From an uncultured Cytophagales bacterium (GTDB lineage Bacteria > Bacteroidota > Bacteroidia > Cytophagales > Bernardetiaceae), in NCBI GenBank assembly GCA_937136415.1, contig CAKZOK010000074.1:1-16048 (forward strand): a DNA stretch of 16,048 nucleotides, given 5' to 3'. The position numbers and the translations under genes were made by a program. The notes below the pieces were generated by a model, which worked only from the letters and a program-made list of their open reading frames with translations, did not search any database and was not told the origin of the DNA. The first letter of the stretch is position 1. Every line of letters starts with the position of its first letter. Below, one piece after another: positions 1 through 7,272 of the stretch.

Positions 1-173
1 ACGAATTACGAATTATGGATTATGAATTACGGATTACGAATTATGAATTACGGATTACGAATTACGAATTACGAATTATGAATTACGAATTATGGATTAT
101 GAATTACGGATTACGAATTATGGATTATGAATTACGGATTACGAATTATGGATTACTGATTACTGATTATGGA
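1..173. repeat. Heptanucleotide tandem repeat array, unit A[CT][GT][GA]ATT (ACGAATT/ATGGATT/ATGAATT/ACGGATT). At least 24 full units, running off the left window edge.
   Basis: Units can be read directly at 1-7, 8-14, 15-21 and so on to 162-168, with a partial 25th unit to 173. A 28-bp higher-order unit ATGGATT-ATGAATT-ACGGATT-ACGAATT recurs at 15-42, 92-119 and 120-147. A short inverted partial copy (AATCCATAAT...AATCCGTAATT) lies at 222-247. Confidence 0.9.
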
Positions 174-282
174 AAATAAAATATCGAACTGGAAAGTGCA
201 ACTTGGTTTCTGTATTTCATTAAATCCATAATTTTTAATCCGTAATTAGCTTCGCTGCTTGCTTTCGCAGGTCGTAATTAAT

Positions 283-1536
283 TTATAGCCTCGCCGTTAC
301 TTTAGACTTATCAAATTTTCCTTTAATATCATAAATAACTGTTTTCTCATGTTTTAGATTTTGAAAATCTAAGGAATTAAATTCTTTGTGCGACACTGCC
401 AAAACAATCGCTTCATATTTTTCAGATGGTTCTTTTATTAAGTCAAGATTATATTCTTGTTTTACTTCGGCTGCATCTGCCCAAGGGTCACAAACTTCTA
501 CATTTGCTCCAAAATCTTCAAATTCTCTAATTACATCAATCACTTTTGAATTACGAATATCTGGACAGTTTTCTTTAAATGTAATTCCTAAAATCAAAAT
601 TTTTGCATTTTTGACATTGCTACTTCTCTGAATCATTAATTTTACTACTTTTGAAGCAACAAAAGCTCCCATTGTATCATTTATTCTTCTTCCTGCCAAA
701 ATTACTTCTGGGTGATAGCCCAAACTTTCGGCTTTGTAGGTCAAATAATAGGGATCAACTCCTATACAATGTCCACCAACTAACCCTGGTTTGAAAGGTA
801 AAAAATTCCATTTTGTTCCTGCTGCTTCTAATACTTCTAAGGTGTCAATATCCATTTTATCAAAAATGAGAGCAAGTTCGTTTACAAAAGCGATATTCAA
901 ATCTCGTTGTGCATTTTCGATTACTTTTGAGGCTTCTGCAACTTTTATAGAAGATGCAACATACGTTCCTGCCGTAATAATTGAGCCATAAAGTGCATTT
1001 AGTTCTTCGGCAATTTTGGGAGTGCTTCCACTGACAACCTTTCTGATTTTGGCAATCGTATGTTCTTTATCCCCTGGGTTGATTCGCTCTGGAGAATATC
1101 CACAAAAGAAATCTTGATTAAATTTGAGTCCACTTTCTTTTTCTAAAATAGGTACACAATCTTCTTCTGTACAACCAGGATAAACTGTCGATTCATAGAC
1201 AACAATATCTCCTTTTTTGAGAACTTTTCCAACTGTTGTTGAGGCTGCAAGAATGGGTTTCAAATTGGGTTTTTTATACAAATCAACAGGTGTAGGAACG
1301 GTTATAATAAATATTGTGGCTTCTTTTAGTTTTTCGATATCAGCAGTAAAAGAAATATGCTTTGATTCTTTTAGTTGTTCTGTATTTACTTCAAGAGTTC
1401 GGTCATATCCTTTTTTGAGTTCTTCAATACGTTTTTTATTAATATCAAAACCAATAGTTGTATATTTTTTACCAAACTCAACAGCCAAAGGCAAACCTAC
1501 ATAACCCAAACCGATAATTGCTAATTTATATGTCAT
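283..1536 (-). CDS. NAD-dependent nucleotide-sugar dehydrogenase. Most likely a UDP-N-acetyl-D-glucosamine/galactosamine/mannosamine 6-dehydrogenase of the WbpO/TviB/WecC family.
   Basis: 417 aa. The N-terminus carries a Rossmann motif ([16 protein letters not shown]). The catalytic-Cys region [12 protein letters not shown] and the segment [11 protein letters not shown] match UDP-sugar 6-dehydrogenases of the WbpO/TviB type rather than Ugd. Exact substrate cannot be assigned from sequence. Confidence 0.85.
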
Positions 1537-1648
1537 AAAGAAAGGACTTTGTTAAATGAGATAAGAAAACCGAAAATCTGAAAATTAATTATAATTTTTA
1601 ATCTACAAAGTAGCTAATTTTTGCTTACATAAAAAAACGAACAAAAAA

Positions 1649-2608
1649 TTATTTTTCTTCTTTGGATTCATTCTTATTGTTTTTCTTATTTTGTTTTATT
1701 TGAAATTGTTTGGGTGTAATTCCTTCATATTTTTTAAAAACACGTATAAAATAAGTCATGTGATTATAACCCAATTCGTAACAAATATCTGTAACTGATT
1801 TTGAAATATCTACTAAGCGATTTTTGGCTATTTCTACACGTTCTCTATTAATATAATCAATGGGCGAAATATCTAAAGTTTCTTTGAAAGTGCGAAAAAA
1901 AGCAGCCTTACTCATACTTGCAATATCGGTCAGTGTATCAATAGAAATGGACTCATCGATATGCTCTTTTATGTATTCCAAAACAGCTTCAATACTTGGG
2001 TTTGTTTGATTTTCTATACTATTTTTTTCTAATTTAATTTTATCTCTTGCTGGTGTTCTGACGAATCTCAAAATCAGTTCTTTTATTGCAAAGTCTATAA
2101 AAATATCTTTGTTATAATGCTCTTCTGTAAACAAATCAATCAATCTTCTAATAGCTTTTTTGATGCTTGTATCGTGTGTAACATTAATGGGCTTTTCTCC
2201 AAACTGCCAAATCGAATTATTTTCTATTTTTAATTTACAATCTTCTTGTGAAGTTTCTATTTGATTATATTGAGAAAGAGTAAGATTAATAATTTCGATA
2301 GGCACTTGAAGCTCTAACCATGAGAAGTCATTTTTAGTACTTTTTTTCTTTGTTTTTTCTTGATTTTTTTGTAAAAAATTTAAGCGAACAGCTTTATGAG
2401 GAGGAATAATTAAGGATTCTCCGACAGTACAATTTTGGTCATATTCCTTAGATTCAAAATTAATATTTCCTTCCAAAATGACAACCAAAGTAACTTTGCT
2501 AGTCTGGATAGTTTTGGGTTTGATAGTATCATCTTTATCAGCATTGAATAATGATAAATTGATTCTATCAGATTGATATAGTGTGGGTTCTAAAGAAGAA
2601 ATGGACAT
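1649..2608 (-). CDS. AraC/XylS-family transcriptional regulator. N-terminal cupin-like sensing domain, C-terminal double HTH.
   Basis: 319 aa. The C-terminal ~100 aa (IDTLTDIASMSKAAFFRTFKETLDISPIDYINRERVEIAKNRLVDISKSVTDICYELGYNHMTYFIRVFKKYEGITPKQF) is a textbook AraC HTH_18 pair. It is co-oriented with the sugar dehydrogenase 112 bp downstream. Confidence 0.85.
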   Translation of the reverse strand: MSISSLEPTLYQSDRINLSLFNADKDDTIKPKTIQTSKVTLVVILEGNINFESKEYDQNCTVGESLIIPPHKAVRLNFLQKNQEKTKKKSTKNDFSWLELQVPIEIINLTLSQYNQIETSQEDCKLKIENNSIWQFGEKPINVTHDTSIKKAIRRLIDLFTEEHYNKDIFIDFAIKELILRFVRTPARDKIKLEKNSIENQTNPSIEAVLEYIKEHIDESISIDTLTDIASMSKAAFFRTFKETLDISPIDYINRERVEIAKNRLVDISKSVTDICYELGYNHMTYFIRVFKKYEGITPKQFQIKQNKKNNKNESKEEK

Positions 2609-2880
2609 ATTAAATAAATATAAATCAAATAAAAATCCTAAAATGAAACAATAGTATTACTTTTGAAATAAATTGAAGAATAGATTCAATAAATAGAGAA
2701 TTTTGTGTAATTTTTATTAAACTCTTTATGGTAATTTTGTTATGTGTTAGAAGAGAAGTGCAAAATTAAAGTTATATATAGACTATAATTTGACTAATAC
2801 TTAGCAAGATACAACTTTTCTATCACAAATTTGGAATAATACACACTAAAAATAATTTTACACAACCAGAAATATATTAA

Positions 2881-2894
2881 CACACACACACACA
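2881..2894. repeat. (CA)7 dinucleotide microsatellite inside a 468-bp ORF-free spacer. Further CA-rich tracts lie at 2966-3010.
   Basis: cacacacacacaca can be read directly. acacacaaataacacaacacacacc follows about 80 bp downstream. Confidence 0.8.
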
Positions 2895-3010
2895 AATATA
2901 TTTACTGAAAATTATTTTGAAATCAATATAAGGTTTTAGCTATTTTGTTTTGATAATTGAAATTGAAACACTTTTTGACCTTACACACAAATAACACAAC
3001 ACACACCAAT

Positions 3011-3070
3011 CAAAAGACTTATTTTACTTCAATTATTTGAGTAAAATAAGTCTTTTGTGGTTTTTGTGAT
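3011..3070. terminator. Perfect 17-bp palindromic hairpin (CAAAAGACTTATTTTAC / GTAAAATAAGTCTTTTG, 13-nt loop). It is followed by TGGTTTTTG on the + strand and by a UG-rich tract on the - strand. Likely bidirectional intrinsic terminator for the 3077..3634 gene.
   Basis: Arms lie at 3011-3027 and 3040-3056 and are exact reverse complements. The hairpin sits 21 bp past the stop codon of the minus-strand ORF, and a T-run occupies 3059-3065. Confidence 0.55.
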
Positions 3071-3076
3071 TATCTA

Positions 3077-3634
3077 TTACCAAGTAATTGTATAAGTACA
3101 ACTATCATCACCATTTATACGATTAGGCTTAGATTCATCTAATTCTACTCTAACTAAACTAGCTGAAGTTGGGCTAAATGTCCGAGCAATGGTGATAATT
3201 AGCCCTCTATCAAAAGCACTAGGATAAGGATTTTTACACTTCATAGTTGCTTTTTTTTCGGTAGCATTAAAAGAAAGGAGTTTATAAAACCCAATTTCAC
3301 CATTGCGATGACTTGTTCTATATACTGCATCAATAGAGTTTAAAGCAGCCTCTAAAGTTTTGATTTCAGGTGGAAGAGGAATGTTTTTAGGAATTGCTTT
3401 TCCAATAGAAAAGAGAGTAGCATTCCCATAACGAGTGCTTATTTCTTTAAAAGCATTAAGCCACAAAGCTTGACTGTACCAGTTATCTACTTGAATATTA
3501 TTGAGGTTATTTTCTGCCAATACATCACTCATAAATTGTTGTGCAATAGGACTGCCTGGAATAGCATTTACGAATGAAAGGATACTTTGACCAGTTACTT
3601 CTACATTAGGAGAAAATGGAATAAATTGTGCCAT
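3077..3634 (-). CDS. Hypothetical protein. No family recognised.
   Basis: 185-aa ORF in an AT-rich genome where long open frames are rare by chance. It has its own downstream hairpin terminator. No motif I can place. No signal peptide. Confidence 0.55.
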   Translation of the reverse strand: MAQFIPFSPNVEVTGQSILSFVNAIPGSPIAQQFMSDVLAENNLNNIQVDNWYSQALWLNAFKEISTRYGNATLFSIGKAIPKNIPLPPEIKTLEAALNSIDAVYRTSHRNGEIGFYKLLSFNATEKKATMKCKNPYPSAFDRGLIITIARTFSPTSASLVRVELDESKPNRINGDDSCTYTITW

Positions 3635-3701
3635 ATCAAAATCAAAAAGGTGGATGATAAAGAAAAATTAGCCTAATATACTCATTATTATAATGAAGTA
3701 A

Positions 3702-3945
3702 GGCATGTTTATAAAAAGTCACAGGGCATGTTTATAAAAACTTTGTCAGTAGTTTTTTGGTAATCCAAAAGAACTCTAACAATAGTTTGGCGCAAAGTGC
3801 TTATTTTTTTAAACTATTGAGAGTCTTGTGAAAGGACTGTCAAAGTCAAAAAAATACTATACCCCGAAGGAGCAGTGTAGCTAAATTCTTTGATTCTAGC
3901 TATTTTTAAAATGAATTATTTTTCATGAACATGCCCTGTAAAAAT
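3702..3945. repeat. MITE-like element or regulatory cassette of about 244 bp. It is bracketed by inverted copies of (ACAG)GGCATGTTYATRAAAAA, with the left terminus tandemly duplicated, and it encloses one copy of the dispersed R2 repeat.
   Basis: Direct copies of GGCATGTTTATAAAAA lie at 3702-3718 and 3725-3741. An inverted copy, TTTTTCATGAACATGCCCTGTAAAAA, lies at 3919-3945. Its reverse complement is TTTTTACAGGGCATGTTCATGAAAAA, against TCACAGGGCATGTTTATAAAAA at 3719-3740. The interior 3731-3846 is homologous to 5252-5324. Confidence 0.6.
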
Positions 3946-4013
3946 TCAAGGTTTTCTTATAAAAAATATTGTTACTGCTTTGGTAGTTCGTAATCTGTAA
4001 TTCATAATTGTTA

Positions 4014-5183
4014 CTAAGAAAGTTTATTCTTAAACATTTCATAGCCGATTTCTCTAACTAACTCAAATTCATTACTTTCTTTCCAAATTCCGATACTCGG
4101 ATGTGGAACACCATTAAACGTAGAAGTTTTGACCATTGTATAATGAATCATATCATCAAAAACGATTTTATCATTAATTTTTAATTCATTTTCAAAGGCA
4201 TAATCTCCCATTCCGATAAAATCTCCAGCCAAACAAGTAGAGCCACCAAAACGATAGACATGTTTTCCTTCATTTTTCGAATTTGAAGTAGCATCTTCTG
4301 CGTCCCAAATTTTGGGTTTATAGGGCATTTCCAAACAATCAGGCATGTGAGCCGTGAAAGAAACATCTAAAATAGCAACATCAATTCCTCTACTATCAAT
4401 AATATCTTGAACAGAACCTATCAAATAACCTGTTTGCCAACCAACAGCTTCCCCTGGTTCTAAGATAACTTGAATATTGTACTTTTCTTTTATTCTATTC
4501 AAAAGTTTTACTAATAATTCTATATCGTAATCTTTTCTTGTGATATGATGCCCACCACCCATATTGAGCCACTTTGCTTGATGCAAAAGATGCCCAAATT
4601 TTTCTTCTACATGAATAAGTGTGCGCTCCAAAGTGTCCGAGCCTTGCTCACAAAGTGTATGAAAATGTAATCCTTCAATTCCTTTTGGAAGGTTTTTGCC
4701 TATTTTGTCATGAGTAATTCCGAAACGAGAACCAGCTACACACGGATTGTATAAATCGGTTTCTACTTCTGAATATTCAGGATTAATACGCAAACCTGTT
4801 GATATTTTTTTGCCTGTTTTGGATTCATTTTGCGCCAATTTATCTTTGAAACGCTCATATTGAGAAAGAGAATTGAAACTAATATGATTTACATAAGTCA
4901 TAATTTCGTTAAATTCTTTATCTGTATAAGCAGGTGCGTAAGCGTGAACTTCCTGCCCAAATTCTTCAAAAGCCAAACGAGCCTCATAAAGTGAACTAGA
5001 GGTGCAACCATGCAAATATTGGCGCACCAAAGGAAAAGTACTAAACATCGAAAAGCCTTTTAAAGCACAAATAATATGCGCTCCTGTGCGTTTTTGGACA
5101 CTATCCAAAATTTCTAAGTTTTGGCGAAGAAGTCGTTCTTCCAAAACAAAACAAGGCGAAGGAATTTGAGAAATATCTATCAT
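4014..5183 (-). CDS. nspC: Carboxynorspermidine/carboxyspermidine decarboxylase (alternative spermidine/norspermidine pathway).
   Basis: 389 aa. The N-terminus MIDISQIPSPCFVLEERLLRQNLEIL and the overall length and composition match the NspC family common in Bacteroidetes, a PLP-independent-fold, AR/DapDC-related enzyme. Assigned from recalled family signature. Confidence 0.85.
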   Translation of the reverse strand: MIDISQIPSPCFVLEERLLRQNLEILDSVQKRTGAHIICALKGFSMFSTFPLVRQYLHGCTSSSLYEARLAFEEFGQEVHAYAPAYTDKEFNEIMTYVNHISFNSLSQYERFKDKLAQNESKTGKKISTGLRINPEYSEVETDLYNPCVAGSRFGITHDKIGKNLPKGIEGLHFHTLCEQGSDTLERTLIHVEEKFGHLLHQAKWLNMGGGHHITRKDYDIELLVKLLNRIKEKYNIQVILEPGEAVGWQTGYLIGSVQDIIDSRGIDVAILDVSFTAHMPDCLEMPYKPKIWDAEDATSNSKNEGKHVYRFGGSTCLAGDFIGMGDYAFENELKINDKIVFDDMIHYTMVKTSTFNGVPHPSIGIWKESNEFELVREIGYEMFKNKLS

Positions 5184-5199
5184 TTTGGATTAATAAAAA

Positions 5200-5229
5200 A
5201 TATCGTCGGTGGGGATACTGACAATGGCG
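5200..5229 (+). repeat. Copy 1 of GC-rich dispersed repeat family R1 (ATATCG-YCGGTGGGGAYAC-N4-CAAYGG).
   Basis: atatcgtcggtggggatactgacaatggcg aligns with 7022-7054 (acagtcgctggtggggacatgagcaacggctgg). It also aligns with the reverse complement of 7133-7160 (atatcgctcgtggggacacgggcaatgg). Confidence 0.7.
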
Positions 5230-5251
5230 TTAAAGTTTAGGGCTTTTAATA

Positions 5252-5324
5252 TTTATAAAACTTTGTCAATAGTTAGTGTTTATTTTTTTTAAGTATTGAC
5301 AGCTTCTTAAAAAGACTCTCAAAG
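5252..5324 (+). repeat. Copy B of dispersed intergenic repeat family R2 (TTTATAAAA(A)CTTTGTCARTAGTT ... TATTTTTTTTAA.YATTGA.AG ... AAGACTSTCAAAG).
   Basis: Collinear with 3731-3846, which is copy A and carries an extra ~40-bp internal segment. Both copies sit in the spacers immediately flanking nspC and in the same orientation. Confidence 0.7.
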
Positions 5325-5347
5325 TTTGGGATTGATATTTCTATAAA

Positions 5348-7003
5348 TTACTTCACTTGCAAAAGTTCCTTTGCGCTATTATAGGTACTTGTACTTGGCG
5401 TAGAACCTCCAATCATTTGAGCAATTTCTCTTACACGCTCGTCGTTTGAGAGTTTTTTGATTCTTGAAACGGTGCGTTCTGCCGAATTATCCTTATAAAT
5501 AAAATAATGCGAACTTCCCTGCGAGGCAACTTGTGGCAAATGACTAATAATCAAAATTTGGTGCGTTTTGGACATATCTTGAATTATTTTTCCCATTTTG
5601 AGCGCAATTTCTCCCGAAATACCTGTATCAATTTCATCAAAAACGAGCGTAGGAAGCGAAATATGTTTTGCCAAAATATATTTTATACAAAGCATCAAAC
5701 GAGAAAACTCTCCACCAGAAGCAACATCTTTCAATGGCTGTGGCGAAATTCCTTTGTTTGCCGAAAACCAAAATTCTACCAAATCAGCACCAGACGGACT
5801 AAGTGAAATTGGTGTAATTTCAATCTGAAAACGAGCATTTGGCATTCCTAATTCTCCTAAAAGATAATTTATTTCGTTCTGCGTTTTTTCTACAACAGAT
5901 TTTCTTTGTTCGGTAAGTTGATTTGCAAGGTCTGTTAGATAGGCTTTCGCTCTCAAAATCTCTTCTTTTAAGTCTTTCAAATCATCATCAAAATTTTCTA
6001 CTTTCCTTACTTTATCTGAAATTTCATCACGAATAATAATTAATTCTTGACTACTATTGACATTGTGCTTGTTTTCCAAATGATACAAAGCACTCAAAAT
6101 TTGTTTTACCACACCTGCTGTTTCGTCGTCGGTTACTAATTCTTCCGATTGGCTTTCAATTTCCTTTGCAATATCCTGAATTTCTATCATTGCACTATTC
6201 AAACGATTGTAAAGCGTTTCGAAAGAAGTTGAAAAAGTTTGTGTTTTGGAAAGTGCATGAACAGCTTCTCTTAAAATATTTTCGGCCGAATATTCTTCAT
6301 CAGACAAAGAATTGAAGGCAATCGACATTTGAGTACGTATAAAATCTACATTTTCTAAGCGTTCTAATTCTTGTTCTAGTTCTTCTTTGTTTATTTTTTC
6401 TAAGTCTGCTTTTTCTAATTCTTCCAAAAGGTGCATATTATAATCGTACTCTTTTCGAAGTCTTATTTCTTCATTTTTTAGCTCTTCGTATTTTTTAATT
6501 ATTTTTCTATACTGTCGATATTCTTGTCCATAAATTTCTAAAAGTGTTTTTGTGTTGGCATACAAATCCAAAACATCTCTTTGATAATCATTTGAAAAAA
6601 GCTGCATTGTATCGTGTTGGGCGTGAATATCCATCAAACGAATAGCAATTCTTTTCAGAGAATCCAAAGGAACAGGCATATCATTAATGAAAGCTCTCGA
6701 ACGACCATTTGGCGCAATTTGCCTACGAATAATACACGTTGTGTCGTATTCAATGTCTTCTTTTTCAAAAATATTTTTGAGATTATAACTTGTAATATCA
6801 AATGTTCCTTCAATGACACACTTTCCATCTGGGTTGAGAAGAACTTTTGTATCTGCTCGGTTTCCTGCCAAAAGTCCCAACGCACCACGCAAAATAGACT
6901 TTCCTGCGCCTGTTTCGCCTGTAATAACATTAAGATTAAAATCTGGCTGGATTTCTAAATGCTCTATGAGCGCATAATTATCGATAAGCAAATGTTTGAG
7001 CAT
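5348..7003 (-). CDS. recN: DNA repair protein RecN (SMC-like ATPase).
   Basis: The canonical RecN N-terminus MLKHLLIDNYALIEHLEIQPDFNLNVITGETGAGKSIL contains a Walker A motif. A long central coiled coil and the C-terminal signature and Walker B region (LVFDEIDTGISG) are also present. The true start is the ATG at 7003, which is M30 of the 580-aa track ORF. The 29 codons upstream read through the R1 repeat and are not RecN-like. Confidence 0.9.
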   Translation of the reverse strand: MLKHLLIDNYALIEHLEIQPDFNLNVITGETGAGKSILRGALGLLAGNRADTKVLLNPDGKCVIEGTFDITSYNLKNIFEKEDIEYDTTCIIRRQIAPNGRSRAFINDMPVPLDSLKRIAIRLMDIHAQHDTMQLFSNDYQRDVLDLYANTKTLLEIYGQEYRQYRKIIKKYEELKNEEIRLRKEYDYNMHLLEELEKADLEKINKEELEQELERLENVDFIRTQMSIAFNSLSDEEYSAENILREAVHALSKTQTFSTSFETLYNRLNSAMIEIQDIAKEIESQSEELVTDDETAGVVKQILSALYHLENKHNVNSSQELIIIRDEISDKVRKVENFDDDLKDLKEEILRAKAYLTDLANQLTEQRKSVVEKTQNEINYLLGELGMPNARFQIEITPISLSPSGADLVEFWFSANKGISPQPLKDVASGGEFSRLMLCIKYILAKHISLPTLVFDEIDTGISGEIALKMGKIIQDMSKTHQILIISHLPQVASQGSSHYFIYKDNSAERTVSRIKKLSNDERVREIAQMIGGSTPSTSTYNSAKELLQVK

Positions 7004-7021
7004 AGTATTTTTTTGTATTAA

Positions 7022-7160
7022 ACAGTCGCTGGTGGGGACATGAGCAACGGCTGGAAGATTAACTGTGAAATAACAGTTTGTAACTGTCAAGCAATATTTT
7101 GTTATTTTTCTTTCAGAGAAAGACCAATTTAACCATTGCCCGTGTCCCCACGAGCGATAT
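7022..7160. repeat. Inverted pair of R1 repeats (7022-7054 and 7133-7160) flanking a 78-bp AT-rich spacer. Potential long stem-loop or MITE-like structure in the divergent recN/permease promoter region.
   Basis: The reverse complement of 7133-7160 is atatcgctcgtggggacacgggcaatgg. It matches 7022-7054 at roughly 19-20 of 24 core positions. Confidence 0.7.
7051..7068. promoter_or_regulatory. 18-bp palindrome AACTGT-GAAATA-ACAGTT about 50 bp upstream of the recN start. Candidate SOS/LexA-type operator (CTGT-N6-ACAG).
   Basis: aactgtgaaataacagtt can be read directly. A second half-site-like GTAACTGTCAAG lies at 7079-7090. recN is a classic SOS regulon member in many bacteria. The spacing differs from the E. 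coli CTGT-N8-ACAG box. Confidence 0.3.
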
Positions 7161-7272
7161 ACAATAACTAAATATACAAAATTCTAAATTCAATTTAATT
7201 GTAAATGTTTTACCTTTGCAATATAAATGTTTATGCTCACAAAATTAGCAAAAAAGTAGCAATTTCTATAAA

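Follow-up and report, generated by a model that had tools for sequence, protein, structure and literature searches.

Members of the ISAs1 family of insertion sequences (IS) are 1.2-1.5 kb long, have CAGGG ends and inverted repeats of about 14-22 bp, and generate a duplication of 8-10 bp (ISfinder). ISArsp11, which belongs to this family, is 1306 bp long and contains 19-bp repeats (CAGGGCTGATGCAAAGTCG) starting with CAGGGC, together with a 10-bp direct repeat (PMC6305408, Table 3). The Tn3-derived TIMEs are able to generate mosaic elements (PMC4133298), and nested miniature inverted-repeat transposable elements (MITEs) have been described in cyanobacteria. Here a stretch of 16,048 nucleotides from an uncultured Bernardetia-like bacterium (contig CAKZOK010000074.1; hereafter, the window) was analyzed, in which positions 3722-3938, judging from their sequence, very probably correspond to a MITE derived from an ISAs1-family IS (a reading to which we would give a probability of about 90%). 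The element resembles ISArsp11 and the ISAs1 of Aeromonas salmonicida in having termini that begin with CAGGGC, 19-bp repeats and a 10-bp duplication, and its parent, of about 1.26 kb and with a single DDE transposase ORF, is also alike (ISArsp11, 1306 bp), although the sequence of the repeat differs from that of published ISAs1 members beyond CAGGGC. As in other IS-derived MITEs, nothing but the ends of the IS is retained in the small element, whereas its interior is captured foreign repeat DNA instead of a deleted IS. A literature search, mostly judged by title, found no published description of an ISAs1-derived MITE in the Bernardetiaceae and nothing on transposable elements or transposases of Bernardetia; the family presented here, common to Bernardetia, a Flexibacter MAG and related metagenome populations, is undescribed in the literature searched.

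The element lies between nspC (4014-5183, minus strand), identified by a TIGR01047 match of 539 bits against a cut-off of 409, and an ORF of 185 amino acids without Pfam or NCBIfam match (3077-3634, minus strand). The spacer between both genes is 379 nt long (3635-4013) and contains the three copies of a motif, two direct and one inverted, that a preliminary description of this DNA had reported as bracketing it, and that were recovered as described: GGCATGTTTATAAAAA is present in exact form at 3702-3717 and 3725-3740, both on the plus strand, and inverted, with 2 mismatches, at 3920-3935. When counted loosely (3 mismatches allowed) the motif is not significant by itself, with 3 copies versus 1.03 expected and 16 of 200 shuffles reaching 3. 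The strict arrangement of direct repeats is significant, unlike the loose count, as 300 first-order Markov simulations of the window yielded no exact 16-mer direct repeat at 100 nt or less, whether or not an inverted copy was required. The inner pair of motifs can be extended to 19 nt, CAGGGCATGTTTATAAAAA at 3722-3740 and, on the reverse complement, CAGGGCATGTTCATGAAAA at 3920-3938. No tRNA or tmRNA gene was detected in the whole window.

These two 19-nt stretches are the terminal inverted repeats of the element (CAGGGCATGTTYATRAAAA), and their arms agree at 17 of 19 positions. The left repeat (3722-3740, plus strand) has one mismatch, a T at position 12, to the family consensus CAGGGCATGTTCATAAAAA; at the right repeat (3920-3938, minus strand) the outermost 25 nt of the element (3914-3938) agree with the left end of the parent IS except at one position (24 of 25). 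Immediately outside are found the left (TAAAAAGTCA, 3712-3721) and right (TAAAAATTCA, 3939-3948) copies of the target-site duplication, which match at 9 of 10 positions, an agreement (9/10 or better) with a chance of about 8e-5 at the local base composition. The preliminary description had proposed a 244-bp cassette at 3702-3945; its inverted termini stand, but its boundaries do not, given that the mobile unit is 3722-3938 (217 bp), the left edge proposed being a solo terminus outside the element and the right edge falling inside the right target-site duplication. The longest ORF starting within the 217 bp has 28 aa, so the element has no coding capacity. Terminal inverted repeats, a duplication of fixed length and a small size without a transposase gene are therefore present in the window, and the termini are common to a transposase-encoding element of Bernardetia sp. 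OM2101 (locus L014). Together with a homologous multi-copy family in relatives and the ISAs1 transposase found in an element with the same ends, this bears out the MITE that had been proposed from the window alone.

A profile of the OM2101 copies matches the window element, on the plus strand, over its full length (169 bits, E 3e-50, model positions 1-195). The window element has a private 22-nt insertion (ACCCCGAAGGAGCAGTGTAGCT, 3861-3882, plus strand), which is a gap in all aligned relatives. The predicted empty-site junction at this locus reads GGCATGTTTATAAAAAKTCAAGGTTTTC. Because the duplication has one mismatch and each terminus has one change, the sequence suggests that the insertion is not very recent. 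The 16-kb metagenome contig of the window (ENA ERZ928254) contains one complete copy, and the multi-copy status comes from relatives.

The parent IS is represented in Bernardetia sp. OM2101, which is the closest complete genome to the window, by a 1258-bp element (L014, 1977-3234) with identical 19-bp termini and a 10-bp duplication, TATGAAATAT. It contains an ORF of 325 aa that matches NCBIfam NF033564 (ISAs1 family transposase) with 113.5 bits, versus a cut-off of 70 (E 1.1e-32), and also, weakly, DDE_Tnp_1. Its CAGGGC termini, 19-bp repeats, 10-bp duplication and length of 1258 bp are those of the ISAs1 family. The left end of this IS reads CAGGGCATGTTCATAAAAAATAATT and has 25 nt in common with the right end of the MITE, and the left end of the MITE has in common with the right end of the IS the 19-nt repeat and a few further bases; the interior of the window element contains no IS-derived sequence past about 25 nt from each end. 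The IS copy at L014 is frameshifted in its N-terminal part and another copy, in L049, is interrupted by an IS5-like element; none of the fetched tiles yielded an intact transposase partner.

The distribution of the termini was analyzed by scanning CAGGGCATGTTYATRAAAA against one genome per species (185,579 species), which gave 91 matching DNA stretches; all copy counts are lower bounds, as they derive from exact pattern matches within 8-kb tiles. The preliminary description had stated that an element and a motif unique to this site would argue against a MITE, and the scan revealed the opposite. In Bernardetia sp. OM2101 eight 8-kb stretches contain a plus/minus terminus pair 175-182 nt apart, and one further stretch has a pair 1239 nt apart. 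With exact termini required, this genome has at least eight complete homologous copies (194-201 bp) and one truncated copy. The eight occupy separate sites; the 10-bp duplication flanking each is perfect, and its sequence differs from site to site. All of them align end to end with positions 3722-3938 (the three that were compared are about 87-89% identical to the window element). The closest copy, 94% identical, was found in a Flexibacter MAG (Flexibacter sp. CG_4_10; L024, 818-1010), with the duplication TATAGATTTT and one terminal mismatch. Inverted terminus pairs, about 119 nt apart, are present in this MAG, and inverted pairs were also detected in Sporomusa species and in one Christensenellales MAG. 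Many copies are present in the JGI metagenomes Ga0105045 and Ga0105046, and the plasmid collection gave partial matches only, all of them from Bernardetia plasmids.

Target-site duplications, which had been suggested as a check on the MITE, accompany the window element (9/10) and 13 other elements with exact termini (9-10 bp). Outside CAGGG...CCCTG the duplication is perfect over 10 bp in 12 of these 13, the remaining one, from Sporomusa, having 9 bp, and 11 of the 15 listed duplications start with TA. One of the OM2101 copies (L071) interrupts an (AATTCGT)n array, and removal of the element plus one copy of the duplication restores the phase of the array, which gives a reconstructed empty site that, at the sequence level, is an indirect substitute for a presence/absence polymorphism. 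Orthologous loci were discarded as empty sites, given the large distance of the relatives (61-67% protein identity) and a different upstream gene; what they offer is the absence of the motif. In Firmicutes-type genomes (L006, L016, L042 and L081, and other Sporomusa, Oscillospiraceae and Christensenellales loci) the same terminus, CAGGGCATGTTCATGAAAA, is found at both ends of elements of about 1.0-1.2 kb and of one element of 165 bp, with duplications of 9-10 bp. Because the 19-nt terminus is the same in these genomes, the elements appear from their sequence to form an ISAs1 subgroup with nearly identical ends that is spread across phyla. The MITE family could be used for genome assembly, for strain typing and for tracing ISAs1 activity.

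The way in which the element moves can be inferred from the ISAs1 family, and from DDE insertion sequences in general, as a mobilisation in trans, for which the following order of events is proposed. A 217-bp non-coding derivative, which keeps only the two 19-bp ends recognised by a DDE transposase, would be bound at these ends by the transposase that a full-length copy supplies in trans, and it would then be excised or copied. The element would be joined to nicks staggered by 10 bp at a new AT-rich site, usually starting with TA, and repair of the gaps would give rise to the 10-bp direct duplication. In the window, it would have landed in the spacer between nspC and the 185-aa ORF, 88 bp upstream of the start codon of the latter.

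The interior of the element contains a palindrome-rich core module of 107 nt (3740-3846, plus strand), composed of four palindromic 15-mers (approximately) of the form AACTNTG-W-CANAGTT, the palindrome sequence being AACTNTGWCANAGTT. The core has the potential to fold into two long hairpins or into a structure with four arms (folding z = -4.1 on the plus strand and -4.3 on the minus strand). The preliminary description had reported that the enclosed sequence is repeated upstream of nspC, and this is correct as far as the similarity goes (3796-3846 and 5275-5325 are 78% identical), but no MITE of this kind is present there, only a core copy without termini of either kind. This copy is shortened to 70 nt (5257-5326, plus strand; core profile E 6.5e-8, 25.3 bits) and is located between recN and nspC, 22 nt past the recN stop and 74 nt ahead of the nspC start.

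A scan of JGI metagenomes with a 29-30-nt interior pattern gave 71 stretches, mostly from two metagenomes. A core of about 105 nt is very conserved across the aligned copies, its sole variable part being the loop between the two central arms. ISAs1-type ends are present on 13 of 54 core copies, and about 18 are inside a second MITE family (type B); the 23 copies that have neither type of end include some decayed ISAs1-type elements, some tandem copies and some copies fixed after stop codons. Type B elements (L100, L116, L124, L133, L137 and L147, among other loci) are about 215 bp long, have termini of about 30 bp (TAGTACAGTGTTTAATAAGTTMTATG...; TAGTACAGTGTTTAATAAGTT...), are flanked by TA and contain the same core of about 105 nt; the flanking TA suggests an IS630/Tc1-like origin for these termini. 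Core tandem arrays were also observed (L121, 6717-6966; L144, 544-793), with at least three units about 135 nt apart and a conserved linker, ATAAATGTATGTTGCAATTTTAT.

The ISAs1-type MITE retains a vestige of the right terminus of type B (ATAACTTATTTGATTAAACA versus ATAACTTATTAAACA), and at L097 a type B end directly abuts an ISAs1-type terminus. Since its interior carries the core and this vestigial terminus, the ISAs1-type family probably originated through the placement of ISAs1 ends on either side of a type B-like element; such an event would have left as interior the core of about 107 nt plus the vestige. Like the mosaic MITEs (the Tn3-derived TIMEs and the nested cyanobacterial MITEs), these elements are non-autonomous, take their interior from another repeat and show nested or adjacent insertions, as in L097; unlike them, a single core is present in two families with unrelated termini, CAGGGCATGTTCATAAAAA and TAGTACAGTGTTTAATAAGTT, and also without termini or in tandem. 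The core is also similar to REP/REPIN and BIME sequences in being intergenic, present in many copies and composed of short imperfect palindromes that form long hairpins, although classical terminal inverted repeats and a 10-bp duplication set the complete element apart from REPINs. The route by which a core common to two MITE families with different ends was captured, and its role in the host, pose a small but real question; apart from the annotation, the new MITE family and this question, the element is ordinary selfish DNA.

A MITE by origin could have been kept at this locus as a terminator or insulator of nspC, or as an element that shapes the expression of the 185-aa gene, an alternative that we consider unlikely, although it deserves some weight. 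The RNA folding recommended in the preliminary description was carried out, and the region folds far better than shuffled sequences (z = -5.1 on the plus strand and -6.9 on the minus strand). On the minus strand, which is the gene-sense strand, a hairpin of -17 kcal/mol (3744-3788) is followed by UUUUUAUAAA, and the 22-nt insertion specific to the window creates a small terminator-like hairpin (3874-3860). Two terminator-like hairpins are consequently found within the element downstream of nspC, on the gene-sense strand, and three terminator-like sites were counted versus 1.1 expected from shuffles. Furthermore, the core without termini lies past a stop codon at the same place in two diverged metagenome loci, where it is better conserved than the non-coding flanks. 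On the other hand, the 54 core copies show no clear bias toward gene 3' ends over 5' ends, and a role of the core as a terminator selected at 3' ends was discarded on this ground; recent spread or gene conversion could also account for the high conservation among copies. Regarding expression, the Bacteroidota -7 motif TAnnTTTG is absent from both strands of 3635-4013, the promoter scan found no enrichment of sigma-70-like sites, and these scans left the 185-aa gene without an assigned promoter. The element may affect nspC termination or the expression of the 185-aa gene, but we regard a host function at this locus as improbable.

The loci just mentioned contain a core without termini placed just past the stop of a photolyase/cryptochrome-like gene (L140, 3148-3238; L151, 3794-3884; L166, in reverse, about 933-1032). 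In the comparison L140 and L166 were aligned, the flanks of L151 being the same as those of L140. Between these two, the identity of the coding DNA was estimated by eye at roughly 90%; save for its loop, the core is nearly fully conserved, and the sequences beyond it are unalignable. The core is better conserved there than the surrounding non-coding DNA between diverged genomes, which suggests that the core is either under constraint or subject to gene conversion. A broader proposal is that the core has a function of its own, for instance as an array bound by a protein or as a cassette that forms an RNA hairpin or terminator in both directions, and that it has been spread through the Bernardetiaceae by at least two unrelated transposase systems and has also been fixed without termini after genes; we regard this proposal as speculative and improbable.

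It is very improbable that the element is the relic of a full-length ISAs1-family IS that inserted here and lost its interior, the cassette never having moved while small. Its termini and its duplication would look identical, but the same derivative of about 195 bp, with the same non-IS interior, is found at no fewer than nine other sites in two genomes with their own duplications, so the deletion derivative itself has spread, and the window copy lacks IS-derived interior past some 25 nt per end. Equally hard to sustain is the view that the element is a gene for a structured non-coding RNA closed by a long stem, for which the strongly negative folding z-scores could be invoked: the whole window gave no match to Rfam at E up to 1, the structure is a consequence of palindromes in the DNA, which fold as well on one strand as on the other, the copies may point either way with respect to the neighbouring genes, and the target-site duplications are evidence of insertion.

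The organization of the locus in relatives is relevant to the regulatory interpretation of the motifs. The best non-self match of the 185-aa protein among 5.8 billion proteins searched is 67% identical, and the homologue of Bernardetia sp. OM2101 is 61% identical, which places the source organism within the Bernardetiaceae (Cytophagales) or next to them. In the relatives, as in the window, a long spacer and then an AraC-family gene follow the 185-aa gene, the AraC-family gene being identified in all but L005, a short contig. The upstream neighbour, nspC in the window, is a DPP-IV-type peptidase gene in L002 and L004, the two loci in which it could be identified (the contigs of L003 and L005 are short). 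An operator array for a regulator of the 185-aa gene, the second reading offered in the preliminary description, is very improbable and can be set aside. The two tandem sites and the inverted one would then bind a looping regulator (e.g., the neighbouring AraC-family protein). The geometry of the array alone is similar to that of the AraC I1-I2/O2 operators (two direct repeats, 23 bp apart, near the start of the gene, and some 200 bp from them a third site, inverted), and the 185-aa and AraC-family genes form a conserved pair in relatives, but the reading fails because the sites are transposon ends, with duplications, and are not conserved at orthologous promoters, the motif being absent, both in motif searches and by direct reading, upstream of the 185-aa orthologues and paralogue at four related loci (L002-L005), and the same 19-mer bounding duplication-flanked elements at many unrelated sites in unrelated phyla and forming the ends of a transposase-encoding IS. 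The assignment to an ISAs1-derived MITE gives a conspicuous repeat of this uncultured bacterium its correct label and removes the tempting reading as an AraC-style looping operator.

The preliminary description had regarded the left terminus as duplicated. The second copy exists, but it is not part of the element: a solo terminus-like sequence, TAAGGCATGTTTATAAAAA (3699-3717, plus strand), lies outside it and is identical over 16 of 16 positions to the adjacent left terminus, with which its 16-nt core has in common the non-consensus T at terminus position 12. Its last six bases belong to the left target-site duplication. This closely spaced terminus pair, the one in the window, is the only case among 151 terminus-like sites in all fetched loci, and simple transposition does not explain it. 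A search of the rebuilt pre-insertion site with the family profile, run at maximum sensitivity, matched the solo terminus of about 19 nt and nothing else. An older, disrupted MITE was discarded, as there is no homology in the rebuilt site beyond this terminus, and so was a simple 23-bp tandem duplication as the whole origin, since 3699-3721 and 3722-3744 agree in all 16 central bases but in just 2 of the 7 flanking ones. A preference for targets similar to their own ends is known in some IS families. The element may have inserted beside a solo end left by an earlier copy, or the solo terminus may have been produced by a local duplication or conversion event.

The spacer between the 185-aa gene and the AraC-family gene (468 nt; 2609-3076 in the window, with the gene sense on the minus strand) may hold more interest than the MITE itself. 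It has counterparts in relatives (L004, 10559-11094; L002, 10559-11137; L005, 1466-1901), with a mean column identity of 71% and long invariant blocks, versus 61-63% for the flanking 185-aa proteins. Its features include several GT-rich blocks (GTGTGTGTTGTGTTATTTGTGTGTAAGGTCAAAAA, and TGTGTGTAA twice), a terminator hairpin in which compensatory changes are seen, and another hairpin, at alignment columns 220-289, in which four pairs show double changes. No Rfam match was obtained for this spacer, which is a candidate for a non-coding RNA or an elaborate regulatory leader. As for the genes themselves, a homologue of the 185-aa protein is named in one source as a '4-vinyl reductase 4VR domain' protein, one relative has two tandem copies of the gene (L002, 9218-9775 and 10001-10558), and its pairing with the AraC-family regulator was found in Bernardetia-like genomes only. 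In L002 (contig_2059) the regions 1-8000 and 12281-14762 contain restriction-modification genes (Eco57I/TaqI_C, SwaI-like), a resolvase gene and a gene for an SNF2/nSTAND3 protein, which suggests that the pair sits there in a variable defence or mobile region.

Finally, the window contains heptamer tandem repeats, (ACGGATT/ACGAATT)n, with about 25 units at its start (1-173), inverted heptamer copies at 223-247 and directly past the nspC stop codon (3984-4009), and a second heptamer/14-mer array, TAATAATTAACCAC, at 10724-10782. The (AATTCGT)n repeat is also present in Bernardetia sp. OM2101, in the MITE-interrupted array of L071 (5839-5908 and 6104-6122), and these arrays are reminiscent of the cyanobacterial short tandemly repeated heptamers (STRR).
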